A stretch of DNA of 23,114 nucleotides from Deinococcus radiodurans R1 = ATCC 13939 = DSM 20539 (GCF_000008565.1 NC_001263.1:974445-997558), one strand, 5' to 3'. Counted from the first letter of the stretch, positions 18,977-23,018 are shown. The notes: generated from the letters alone by a model not told the origin. Numbers and translations are program-made.

Positions 18977-20308
18977 ATGACCACTGCTCAACCCGATGCT
19001 CAACCCGGCGCCCAGCCGATTGCCGACCTGGGCCTCAAGCCCGGCCAACTGCACCTCAACCCTGGTGTGGACGACCTCTACGCCCACGCCATTCGCCTCG
19101 GTGAAGGAGTGCAGGCCGCCACTGGCCCGCTGACCGTACGGACCAACAAGACGGGCCGCAGCCCCAAAGACCGCTTCATCGTCGAAGACGACCAGACCCG
19201 GGAAACCGTGTGGTGGGAAGGCTTCAACCAGCCGATCAGCGCCGAAGTCTTTGACCGACTGCTGGACAAGATGGTGAAGTACGCCGAGGGCCGGGAACTG
19301 TTTGTGCAGCAGGTCTTCGCCGGCACCGATGCCGAGCACCGCATCCCCGTGCGGATGATCACCGAAATGGCGTACCACTCGCTGTTTATCCGCAACATGT
19401 TCGTGCGCCCCACCGCCGAGGAACTCCAGAACTTCCAGGCCGAGTGGACGGTGCTCAACATCCCGTCGTTCAAGGCCGACCCGGCGGTGGACGGCACCCG
19501 CACCGACACCTTTATCCTGGTCAACTTCAGCAAGAAGATGATCATCGCGGGCGGCACCCAGTACGCCGGCGAGAACAAGAAGGGCATCTTCGGCGTCCTG
19601 AACTACCTGCTGCCCGCCAAGGGCATCATGCCGATGCATTGCTCGGCCAACGTGGGCGAGGACGGCGACGTGGCGCTGTTCTTCGGCCTGAGCGGCACCG
19701 GCAAGACCACCCTGAGCGCCGACCCCGGCCGCAAGTTGATCGGTGATGACGAGCACGGCTGGACCGACACCGGCGTCTTCAACTTCGAGGGCGGCTGCTA
19801 CGCCAAGGTCATCAACCTGAGCGCCGAGGCCGAGCCCGCTATTTACCAGACCACCCGCAACTACGGCACCGTGCTGGAAAACGTGGTGCTCGACGAGAGC
19901 GGCACCCCCGACCTCGACGACGGCTCGCTGACTGAAAACACCCGCAGCGCCTACCCCATCGAGCAGATCGCCAACATCCAGCCCGGCAGCGTGGGCGGCA
20001 TTCCCAAGAACGTGGTGTTCCTGACCGCCGACGCGTTCGGCGTGTTGCCCCCGCTTTCGCGCCTGACCCCCGAGCAGATGATGTACCAGTTCATCTCGGG
20101 CTTCACCGCCAAGATTCCTGGCACCGAAGAAGGCGTGACTGACCCCACCCCGACCTTCAGCACCTGCTTCGGCGCGCCCTTCATGCCCCGTCACCCCGGC
20201 GAATATGCCCGGCTCCTGGCGCAGAAGGTCGAAGAAAGCGGCGCGAAGGTGTGGCTCGTCAACACCGGCTGGACCGGCGGCAAGTACGGCGAAGGCCACC
20301 GCATGAGC
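18977..20308 (+). pseudogene. pckA: ATP-dependent phosphoenolpyruvate carboxykinase, 3'-truncated by the IS element after codon 444
   Basis: GGAGG lies 4 nt before ATG 18977. The kinase-1a P-loop GLSGTGKTTLS and the motif LVNTGWTGGKYGEGHRMS are present. Homology stops at 20308. The ORF then reads 22 IS-derived codons ([22 protein letters not shown]) to a stop at 20375-20377. About 80-90 C-terminal residues expected from E. coli PckA are missing. Confidence 0.9.
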
Positions 20309-20458
20309 TTGAACCTCACACGACTAAAGTCGCGTGATTCTCACTTCGCAGACCATTGCCCGCCGAAGCAGGTCTGACATAGCCTCCATGAGCGTTTAAG
20401 GTGTCTGAGATTCCCGCAGCCACCAACGCTTCACGCCGAATGTTCAGCGCAGCGTTCT
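20293..20458 (-). ncRNA. TnpB-associated omega RNA / reRNA: roughly 150-nt scaffold overlapping the tnpB 3' end and right end, plus a 16-nt guide from flanking DNA
   Basis: The minus strand reads ...GAATCTCAGACACCTTAAACGCTCATGGAGGCTATGTCAGACCTGCTTCGGCGGGCAATGGTCTGCGAAGTGAGAATCACGCGACTTTAGTCGTGTGAGGTTCAA|GCTCATGCGGTGGCCT. Visible helices are CAGACC/GGTCTG enclosing CCTGC-TTCG-GCGGG, and CACGCGAC-TTTA-GTCGTGTG. This matches my recollection of the ISDra2 scaffold. The 5' end is uncertain and could extend to about 20540. Confidence 0.8.
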
Positions 20459-21542
20459 CGTCTCGGTCATGGGTTTCCCCACAGTTCGGGCAAGTCCATG
20501 TACGGACGGCAAGATTCTTCACTTCGGGATTCTTGAATCCGCAGTCATGACACAACTGGCTAGATGGAAAGTAGGGGCTGACTTTAGATACCAGTCGCCC
20601 GTACCACGCTGCCTTGTATTCCAACTGCCGGATGAACTCACCCCAGCCCGCATCACTGATGCTCAGTGCAAGGCGGCGATTTTTCCGCATGTTGTCGGGT
20701 TTAAGGTGTTCGGTTCCGATGATTTCGTACTCACGCACCAGGGAGGTGGTGAGCTTGTGAAGGAAATCCTGACGCTTATTGACAATGCGCTTGTGAATCC
20801 GAGCCAGCTTGGTTTTCGCTTTCCCGTAACGTGCGCTGCCCTTCTTCCGTCTGGACAGGGTTTGCTGAGCTTTACGAAGTCTTTTCAGGGTGGAGCGGTA
20901 ATATTTCGGATTCTGTTCATGCTTAAACCTCACGCCATCGGTCACGATGGCAAAATCCTTGATGCCGACATCCACACCCGCTGCAAACTTGGGAGCCGCA
21001 GGCAGGTAGGGAATCTCGACTTCACAGAGAACGGACGCTTCGTAATGGCCTTCGTGAATACGGCGCACAGTGACATTCAGAATCTTCCCTTGAATATCCT
21101 GCTGGCCCTTGGTTTTCACCCATCCCAGCTTAGGAAGTTTGAGCCTACCTTCCCCAATTTGGATGTTGTTGTTGGTGAATTGAGTCCGGTAGGACTCTCC
21201 CGTGCGCTTCTTTCTGAAACGTGGGAATCCTACCTTTTTACCGGACTGCTTCACAGTCCGAAAGAAGTTCTTGTACGCGGTCTCAAGGTTTTTCAGCGAG
21301 TTCTGCAAAGCAAACTTATCTACTTCCGAGAGCCAGGAGGTTTCTTCAGCCTGCTTCAGAAGGGTCAGTTCGCTACTCGTTTGCCCGTAGGTCAGTCCCT
21401 TCCCGCTTTCCTTGTAGGCCGCAATGCGACGGGCAAGGAAGTGGTTGTAGACGAACCTTGCGCTACCCAGCGTGCGGTTAATCAGTTCAGTCTGAGCCGC
21501 ATTTGGGTACAGCCTGACCACGAAAGCCTTATTCCTTATCAT
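20316..21542 (-). CDS. tnpB: TnpB, RuvC-like RNA-guided DNA endonuclease (OMEGA / Cas12 ancestor)
   Basis: 408 aa. The RuvC triad is D191 ([11 protein letters not shown]), E278 (IIGTEHLK) and D361 ([12 protein letters not shown]). A zinc finger is formed by CHDC(331-334)...CPNC(351-354). The sequence matches ISDra2 TnpB as I remember it. Confidence 0.98.
20317..20336 (-). repeat. Right-end subterminal hairpin (TnpA recognition element as DNA; 3' stem of the omega RNA)
   Basis: Minus-strand CACGCGAC-TTTA-GTCGTGTG forms 8 bp with one G-T pair. It lies 7 nt from the element end (GGTTCAA). Confidence 0.75.
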
Positions 21543-21951
21543 GCTGGCTCTCTATGTATTTCTGAATCTGAGCGCGGGTGTTTTCAGAAACAGTCAGGAT
21601 GCAATACGACGGGTTCCAGAGATTGCCGCCCCACAGCTTTTCTTTCAACTGCGGGTAGGCCACGAACATCCGACGTGCGGAAGCGCCTTTCAGCGCCTTC
21701 ACGAAGTCGGGGATGGCTTGCTGTGGGGTTGCGCTTAGCAGGAGGTGAACGTGGTCAGGCATGACTTCCATCGTGATGACTTCCAGCCCGTTCTGAGCGG
21801 CAATGTCACGCAGGATGTCTTTCAGTCCATCAGCAACCTCACCCACCAACACCTGATGACGGTATTTCACGCACCAGATGAGGTGGTATTCAAGCTGATA
21901 GACGTAACCCCGGCCTTTCTTCATCTCAAGGGGAAGAATAACATATGTCAT
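21529..21951 (-). CDS. tnpA: IS200/IS605 HUH single-strand DNA transposase (Y1)
   Basis: 140 aa with the HUH motif H67-V-H69 (MPDHVHLLL) and the catalytic Tyr in the C-terminal helix (QKYIESQ, Y132). Confidence 0.97.
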
Positions 21952-21980
21952 CTGGAAAAGCTAGAGGCTTCCGCTTTTCA

Positions 21981-21998
21981 TCGCCCTTTTCAGGGCGA
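21981..21998 (-). repeat. Left-end subterminal hairpin
   Basis: Minus-strand TCGCCC-TGAAAA-GGGCGA forms a 6-bp perfect stem. It sits between the element tip (22044) and the tnpA start (21951). Confidence 0.7.
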
Positions 21999-22044
21999 GA
22001 GGGGCTAACTCATGACTGAAGTCACGAGTGTGCGCCCCTCAAGC

Positions 22045-22049
22045 ATCAA
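22045..22049 (-). other. TTGAT insertion target / TnpB TAM abutting the left end
   Basis: Plus-strand ATCAA, which is TTGAT on the element strand, lies immediately 5' of the left end. This is the known target specificity of ISDra2. Confidence 0.85.
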
Positions 22050-23018
22050 GAACGCCGCCGTCAACCTGCCCTACGGCGGCGGCAAGGGCGGCATCCGCAT
22101 TGACCCGCGCAAGTACAGCCAGGGCGAACTCGAGCGCGTCACCCGCCGCTACACCACCGAAATCGGCCTGATTATCGGGCCGGAAAAGGACATCCCCGCG
22201 CCCGACGTGAACACTGGCCCGCAGACGATGGCCTGGATGATGGACACCTACTCCATGAACGTGGGCCGCACCGCGACGGGCGTGGTGACCGGCAAGCCGG
22301 TGTCGCTCGGTGGCTCGCTGGGCCGCGCCGACGCCACCGGACGCGGCGTGTTCGTGACCGGCGCCGAGGCGATGAAAAAGCTCGGGATGCCGCTCGAAGG
22401 CGCCCGCATCGCTGTGCAGGGCTTCGGCAATGTGGGTGAGGCCGCCGCCCGCATCTTCCACCAGCACGGCGCCAAGATCGTTGCCATTCAGGACGTGACC
22501 GGCACCATTCACAGCGCGGCGGGCATCGACCCCGGCAAGGCGCTCGCGCACCTGCGGCAGACCGGCAAGATCACCGGGCTCGAAGGCAGCGAGGAAATGC
22601 AGAAGGACGACTTCTGGAGCGTGGACTGCGACGTGCTGATTCCGGCGGCGCTCGAAAAGCAGATCACCCTGCAAAACGCCGACAAGATCAGGGCGCGGCT
22701 CGTCGTCGAGGGCGCCAACGGCCCCACCATTCCCGCCGCCGACGACCTGCTGGCGCAAAAGGGCGTGACCGTGGTGCCCGACGTGCTCGCCAACGCGGGC
22801 GGCGTGAGCGTGTCGTACTTCGAGTGGGTGCAGGACTTCTCCAGCTTCTTCTGGACCGAAGATGAAATCAACGAGCGCCTCGACCGCATCATGCGCGAAG
22901 CCTTCCAGAGCCTCTGGGACGTGAAGGAACAGCACGGCGTAACGCTGCGGACGGCGGTGTACATCGTCGCCTGTACCCGCGTCCTCGAAGCGCGGGCGTG
23001 CGCGGGCTGTATCCGTAA
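22045..23018 (+). pseudogene. gdhA: Glutamate dehydrogenase remnant (Glu/Leu/Phe/Val dehydrogenase family), lacking about 100 N-terminal codons and with an apparent frameshift near the 3' end
   Basis: Absent from the ORF track because the frame has no stop inside the window. My translation gives [21 protein letters not shown]...[21 protein letters not shown]...VEGANGPT...[15 protein letters not shown]...VLEARA. The frame then shifts: the expected ending (L/V/M)RGLYP-TAA is in the frame of TAA 23016-23018. An antisense 356-aa track ORF (22039..23109) covers the same DNA. Confidence 0.9.

Follow-up and report, generated by a model that had tools for sequence, protein, structure and literature searches.

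A single ISDra2 copy between truncated pckA and gdh2 genes marks a 6,066-bp loss with TTGAT target sites at both ends in Deinococcus radiodurans ATCC BAA-816

We studied a 23,114-nt stretch of Deinococcus radiodurans R1 (NC_001263.1:974445-997558, hereafter the window) from chromosome I of the 1999 genome of ATCC BAA-816 (AE000513). Within it, at DR_0977 to DR_0980, a complete copy of the insertion sequence (IS) ISDra2 lies between a truncated pckA gene (DR_0977) and a truncated gene for a Glu/Leu/Phe/Val dehydrogenase (gdh2, DR_0980). Compared with a sister strain that lacks the IS at this locus, 6,066 bp are missing here, and both ends of the missing interval are canonical ISDra2 target sites, TTGAT, on the same strand and in the same orientation. 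The event as such is already known and was published in 2024. Repar et al. (2024, Genes 15:847, PMC11276467) list it in their Table 1 as an ISDra2 at 994752, at DR_0977/DR_0980, with 'loss of 6 kb DNA', and in their Table 4 as event 1, of 6,065 bp and with the same gene list. The same locus, with five extra open reading frames (ORFs) in ATCC 13939K, is also found in Figure 2F of a second study (Front Microbiol 2024 15:1410024, PMC11219805), which describes ATCC 13939K as having lost ISDra2 and gained genes; we infer the reverse, a deletion in BAA-816. PCR confirmation in that study is confined to those IS copies that only ATCC 13939K carries and does not extend to this locus in BAA-816, and the passages of Repar et al. 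(2024) available to us contain no PCR validation of the locus. Neither of the two papers mentions that the breakpoint in pckA is a TTGAT as well. We add here this second TTGAT, with its statistics, and support for the junctions from sequences independent of The Institute for Genomic Research (TIGR).

The extent of the loss was established by comparison with strain R1 dM1 (CP031500.1, locus L081), whose IS-free locus was retrieved through the product of the neighbouring gene prfA. Positions 7534-20308 and 22044-23114 of the window align to CP031500 at 99.9%, and between the two aligned blocks CP031500 holds the 6,066 bp that are absent from the window. They comprise four complete genes, a small ORF and parts of two further genes (Table 1), the truncated gdh being the second of two tandem paralogs. 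The BAA-816 lineage is therefore without complete pckA, acoA/acoB-like E1 genes, gdh1 and gdh2. A preliminary description, made from the window alone, had correctly put the IS right end directly after pckA codon 444, and both truncated genes on the plus strand. It came close with 80-90 missing pckA codons, where the comparison gives 91, and with a gdh break at about codon 100, which in fact falls at codon 114 of 437. Its picture of the loss as two gene ends and a spacer was wrong by an order of magnitude.

The ancestral sequences at the two breakpoints can be read directly in CP031500. The pckA site is ATGAGC|ATCAAGCAC (in a longer read, ...CACCGCATGAGC|ATCAAGCACACC), with the codons CGC ATG AGC | ATC AAG CAC for R-M-S|I-K-H, and the gdh2 site is ATGACC|ATCAAGAAC (longer, ...TGGATGACC|ATCAAGAAC), with the codons ATG ACC | ATC AAG AAC. 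On the plus strand, both the deleted segment and the retained right flank thus begin with ATCAA, which is TTGAT on the minus strand. From the junction alone it had been predicted that intact pckA would carry ATCAA exactly at the break, as the ATC-AAG in gdh does, and the intact genes bear this out at both sites. The pckA target occupies codons 445-446 and lies 6,066 bp from the gdh2 target on the same strand. ATCAAG is found at the break codon in all three of the closest pckA orthologues fetched (91%, 88% and 82% identical), and more distant Deinococcus orthologues have ATCCGC, ATCGGC and similar sequences there. As ATCAA occurs 17 times in the 21,128 positions of the locus, a right-end breakpoint chosen without regard to sequence would fall directly 5′ of one with p ~8e-4. 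Having TTGAT at both ends, on the same strand, is what a model of recombination between two ISDra2 copies requires.

The deletion junctions exist in independent sequence data. At the pckA-IS junction of the window the pckA frame runs into the IS and acquires a 22-residue IS-encoded tail, with a stop at 20375-20377; the resulting fusion ORFs of 490 aa and 466 aa correspond to AAF10554.1 and to UniProt Q9RVP6/WP_234944679.1, and the annotated pckA ORF may begin at a GTG at 18905. An exact-protein look-up found the 466-aa fusion also on five short-read metagenome contigs, four from ENA project PRJEB12287 and one from the Joint Genome Institute (JGI) metagenome 3300030446; the 490-aa form had no record in the contig index. 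In PRJEB12287, Schirmer et al. (2016, PMC4787001) re-sequenced the Shakya/Podar synthetic community. The pckA-junction contigs break off 76-125 nt into the IS, which a repeated element would lead one to expect. Over 11,457 nt one of them (L090) matches the window at 100% identity, and this stretch takes in a 6-nt indel in metH (see below); the DNA is therefore of BAA-816 type. We then built the three further fusion ORFs that could arise and searched for them by exact sequence in a collection of 15 billion proteins. The fusion of the left-end sequence to gdh2 (335 aa, ending in ...RGLYP) was found on three PRJEB12287 contigs, and sample ERZ926304 carries both the pckA-IS and the IS-gdh2 junctions. 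The remaining two ORFs, gdh2 1-113 with a right-end tail (135 aa) and a left-end lead joined to pckA 445-535 (102 aa), are absent from this collection. Only a genotype with two copies or with a single insertion would give rise to these two; the inner junctions would then read gdh2 codon 113|TTGAACCTC and ...CCTCAAGC|ATCAAGCACACC, and both ORFs would be complete on contigs of that kind. JGI metagenome contigs, scanned once for the right-end junction (pckA or gdh2 side) and once for the left-end junction (gdh2 or pckA side), gave no match. The presence of both outer junctions in independent assemblies, together with the absence of the inner-junction ORFs, makes an assembly collapse, which the preliminary description had offered as an alternative, unlikely. 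The intact 535-aa PckA was found on 195 contigs and the fusion on 4-5.

We consider it probable that ISDra2 inserted canonically at two sites and that the two copies then underwent homologous recombination or single-strand annealing. According to this scheme, as ISDra2 rose from one intact copy to seven in the BAA-816 lineage of D. radiodurans R1, two new copies would have entered by the normal single-strand mechanism of TnpA, in either order, one 3′ of the TTGAT in pckA and one 3′ of that in gdh2. Sharing their orientation, the insertions would have formed two 1.7-kb direct repeats, and recombination or annealing between these would have removed 6,066 + 1,736 bp, that is, the interval and one copy, leaving one IS, with pckA against its right end and the gdh2 TTGAT against its left end. 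The copy numbers rest on published counts of intact ISDra2, seven in BAA-816 versus one in ATCC 13939 (PMC2806898; PMC11276467), and irradiation, which induces ISDra2 transposition, also sets off extensive recombinational repair (PMC2806898). The two targets share a strand and are separated by 6 kb, which makes a local hop at a single replication fork plausible. Several points weigh against this account. The preliminary description had proposed the same history of two insertions in the same orientation followed by recombination, and its two targets are indeed TTGAT on the same strand, but neither the two-copy flanking arrangement nor a single pckA or gdh2 insertion occurs in any genome or dataset searched, so that the intermediate is hypothetical; a lack of sampled intermediates is, for its part, no disproof of the history. 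Because the ISDra2 copies do not differ from one another, recombination would have left no scar in the one that survives. Two of about eight insertions must also fall within 6 kb, for which we roughly estimate a prior of ~5-10% if insertion is random; the prior would be higher given local hopping at one replication fork. Finally, Repar et al. (2024) give more space to a one-step event.

That one-step event, an aberrant transposition termed 'jump-over', is weighed by Repar et al. (2024) beside recombination between two IS copies, and they argue for a right end without sequence requirement. Here a single ISDra2 circle would bridge the two sites, its left end joining the gdh2 TTGAT and its right end, 6 kb away, joining 3′ of the pckA TTGAT, with loss of the looped-out DNA; in a variant, TnpA would re-join the left end of an existing pckA copy to a second cleaved TTGAT. 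Transposition of ISDra2 uses single-stranded DNA, which is able to fold back (PMC2806898; PMC11276467), and the two sites would be on the same lagging-strand template. Only one IS is present, as such an event predicts, and a jump-over carried out by TnpA also predicts TnpA-cleavable sites at both ends. In the known reaction of IS608 and ISDra2, a TnpA dimer cleaves once at the target, and this is coupled to one cleavage at the junction. By this biochemistry, cutting two targets 6 kb from each other would need an extra cleaved TTGAT at a second active site of the left-end type. No such deletion product is reported among the mapped ISDra2 insertions (PMC2806898), and for the jump-over as first stated, with a right end free of sequence requirement, the TTGAT there is unpredicted (p ~8e-4). 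We regard a jump-over as unlikely. Somewhat doubtful too, and in our judgement improbable, is the broader proposition that the transposition machinery itself made the deletion, TnpA having cleaved two TTGATs on the single-stranded lagging-strand template and joined the IS between them, or having re-joined the left end of a pckA copy to the gdh2 TTGAT, with the interval released as a circle; if true, an IS200/IS605 Y1 transposase would possess an 'adjacent deletion' activity not described before.

We find it very unlikely that a single insertion in pckA was followed by an alternative end-joining deletion between 6-bp ATCAAG repeats, one just beyond the IS left end and one within gdh2. The pckA and gdh2 sites do share CATCAAG, with 13 of the 15 bases around it alike, and deletions between 4-10-bp repeats distinguish these same genomes (PMC11276467, Table 5). 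However, among thousands of positions the deletion would have to start at the exact base beside the IS end, and the ATCAAG direct repeat, which occurs at each ancestral site, consists mostly of the TTGAT target, so that it is common to both models and equally expected under two insertions. That two ISDra2 copies and the 6 kb are present in the strain and were collapsed in the 1999 shotgun assembly is highly improbable: a collapse of identical repeats yields the same picture, the 1999 sequence has errors such as a missing C at 22999, and Repar et al. (2024) caution on misassembly at long repeats (PMC11276467), but independent Illumina mock-community assemblies show both junctions in BAA-816-type DNA, the inner-junction ORFs are missing from a collection in which the outer-junction ORFs of the same assemblies are indexed, and a collapse would leave 6 kb of unique reads in place.

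The element itself, published as DR_0978-DR_0979 (PMC11219805; PMC11276467), is an ISDra2 of the IS200/IS605 family by its TnpA, TnpB, hairpins, TTGAT and sequence identity, and its ends had been placed exactly in the preliminary description. It is identical at 1736/1736 positions to the copies in CP031500, CP150840, CP094462 and CP050116, with no mismatch over 1,736 bp to six of the seven complete comparison copies (L082-L088). TTGAT stands directly 5′ of the left end in all seven of these and in a cut copy (L089), and the right-end flanks differ among the compared copies. The exact TnpA protein was found on many D. radiodurans contigs. tnpB and tnpA overlap by 14 nt. Folding of the single-stranded DNA of both ends gave subterminal hairpins in place of terminal inverted repeats, and when the IS is excised, no bases at the ancestral sites remain duplicated, that is, there is no target-site duplication. 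GC content is ~0.53 in ISDra2 versus ~0.65-0.70 in the host DNA; GC skew, computed to assign the lagging-strand template, was ~0 across the window. In length, sequence, tnpA/tnpB content, hairpins, left-end TTGAT and lack of a duplication the copy is the same as reference ISDra2, and only its flanks, which come from two different genes, are unusual compared with other copies. Another ISDra2 copy with mismatched flanks was seen at 7908..9643 of L085 (GCA_965136095.1, CBCRWM010000001.1). Its left flank is that of the resident DR_1651/1652 locus, but in place of the usual neighbour its right end abuts a truncated SNF2/intein-containing helicase gene, which may reflect a second inter-IS recombination or a misassembly.

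Table 1. Features of the ISDra2 locus in the window, and genes of the 6,066-bp interval present in CP031500 and missing from the window.
Feature	Position	Strand	Details
ISDra2 (IS8301; IS200/IS605 family), complete	20309..22044	minus	1,736 bp; left end 22044, right end 20309
tnpA, Y1 HUH transposase	21529..21951	minus	140 aa; Pfam Y1_Tnp E=2.3e-43, profile 2-121 of 121
tnpB, RNA-guided nuclease	20316..21542	minus	408 aa; Pfam HTH_OrfB_IS605, OrfB_IS605, Cas12f1-like_TNB
Right-end subterminal hairpin	20316..20337	minus	CACGCGACT-TTAG-AGTCGTGTG on the active strand; fold of single-stranded DNA
Left-end subterminal hairpin region	21999..22040	minus	inner stem 22008-22029; fold of single-stranded DNA, z = -4.1 vs shuffles
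TTGAT target and transposon-associated motif (TAM)	22045..22049	minus (ATCAA on plus)	abuts left end 5′; in gdh2 codons 114-115; read directly
Predicted TnpB guide segment (reRNA/omega-RNA), 16 nt of pckA at IS right end	20293..20308	minus	5′-GCTCATGCGGTGGCCT-3′; inferred from Karvelis et al. 2021
pckA 5′ fragment (DR_0977)	18977..20308	plus	codons 1-444 of 535; Pfam PEPCK_ATP E=5e-200, profile 2-424 of 465
gdh2 3′ fragment (DR_0980)	22045..23018	plus	codons 114-437; Pfam ELFV_dehydrog_N 59-128 of 129 and ELFV_dehydrog; CP031500 alignment
pckA 3′ end	missing interval		last 91 codons
Glycine-rich protein gene	missing interval		283 aa
Small ORF	missing interval		44 codons
acoA/acoB-like E1 alpha and E1 beta genes, 2-oxoacid/acetoin dehydrogenase	missing interval		381 aa, 341 aa
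gdh1, complete first gdh paralog	missing interval		419 aa
gdh2 5′ end	missing interval		first 113 codons of 437

Both gene fragments are on the plus strand. The pckA fragment is 100% identical to pckA of CP031500 up to 20308. The N-terminal domain match of the gdh2 fragment starts only at profile position 59/129, and its annotated ORF begins at an ATG at 22012, within the left end of ISDra2. A C is absent at window position 22999 compared with CP031500, by which gdh2 is frameshifted, the stop at 23016-23018 is lost and the ...EARALRGLYP* end is altered. The unshifted end is encoded by L094-L096, Illumina contigs obtained independently from BAA-type DNA, so that the missing C is a mistake in the 1999 sequence and does not distinguish the strains.

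The junction has a further property that bears on TnpB. The last ~16 nt of its right end element RNA (reRNA), which form the guide, come from the DNA beside the IS right end, and its TAM is TTGAT (Karvelis et al., 2021, PMC8612924). No Rfam family matched a TnpB reRNA here. TTGAT followed by GCTCATGCGGTGGCCT is exactly the wild-type pckA site, as in the 'peel, paste and copy' homing of TnpB and its reRNA, in which the right-end flank together with TTGAT corresponds to the empty target. Judging from these sequences, TnpB of the deletion allele should cut IS-free pckA alleles, and by cutting the wild-type pckA alleles that remain in a multi-copy genome it could help to fix the deletion allele. 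We also considered ectopic homing by TnpB from a gdh2 copy into pckA and rejected it, the gdh2-flank guide GGTCATCCACGCCGAG agreeing by eye with the pckA target GCTCATGCGGTGGCCT at 7/16 positions.

A tblastn search with the gdh fragment revealed no gdh homologue downstream of pckA in 12 other Deinococcus loci, with 10 kb fetched in only some of them, and the pckA-aco-gdh1-gdh2 arrangement appears to be confined to D. radiodurans and its nearest relatives; PckA and Gdh1 apparently occur together on a 13-kb contig of D. wulumuqiensis. Several further observations concern the interval and the window. Two contigs from ENA metagenomes, L097 (6,421 bp, ERZ28640028) and L098 (6,393 bp, ERZ28639918), consist of the 6-kb interval with no more than 154-217 bp to either side; apart from a 42-bp deletion, all their aligned blocks are 99.7-100% identical to D. 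radiodurans. We speculate that they are orphan contigs left after spike-in reads were subtracted with the 1999 reference, which lacks the interval. The 42-bp deletion is in frame, lies between 10-nt direct repeats in the glycine-rich gene (L081rc 14080-14111) and shortens its product from 283 aa to 269 aa; it was seen in several metagenome-derived D. radiodurans contigs (L097-L103). At window position 9435, in a metH gene of ~1,260 aa (mechanical ORF 6252..10187, 1,311 aa), six bases of CP031500 (CGTGAA) are absent. The mock-community contig L090 agrees exactly with the window at this indel, which seems to be a genuine in-frame marker for the BAA-816 lineage.

IS-mediated deletions through direct IS repeats are familiar from IS6110 in Mycobacterium tuberculosis and from IS1 and IS5 in Escherichia coli. 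As in those deletions, a single surviving IS stands at this locus between mismatched halves of two sites, with the interval lost; a similar M. tuberculosis event is cited by Repar et al. (2024). Where an IS family duplicates its target, such an event is betrayed by duplications that do not match, whereas with ISDra2 the sign is the conserved target pentanucleotide at both ancestral breakpoints. With TTGAT at both, the 'either/or' of the literature looks reasonably decided, in favor of ordinary recombination and against a jump independent of sequence. The deletion has consequences for the use of the reference genome as well. The 1999 D. radiodurans sequence and the databases derived from it are without six coding features of the type-strain lineage, and the PckA entry in UniProt, Q9RVP6 (466 aa), is a chimera, truncated and ending in 22 residues encoded by the IS. 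The gap passes on to metabolic reconstructions, proteomics searches and read filtering that are based on this reference. For the organism itself, the locus would mean that an IS burst costs genes by ectopic recombination even in a bacterium famed for accurate repair.

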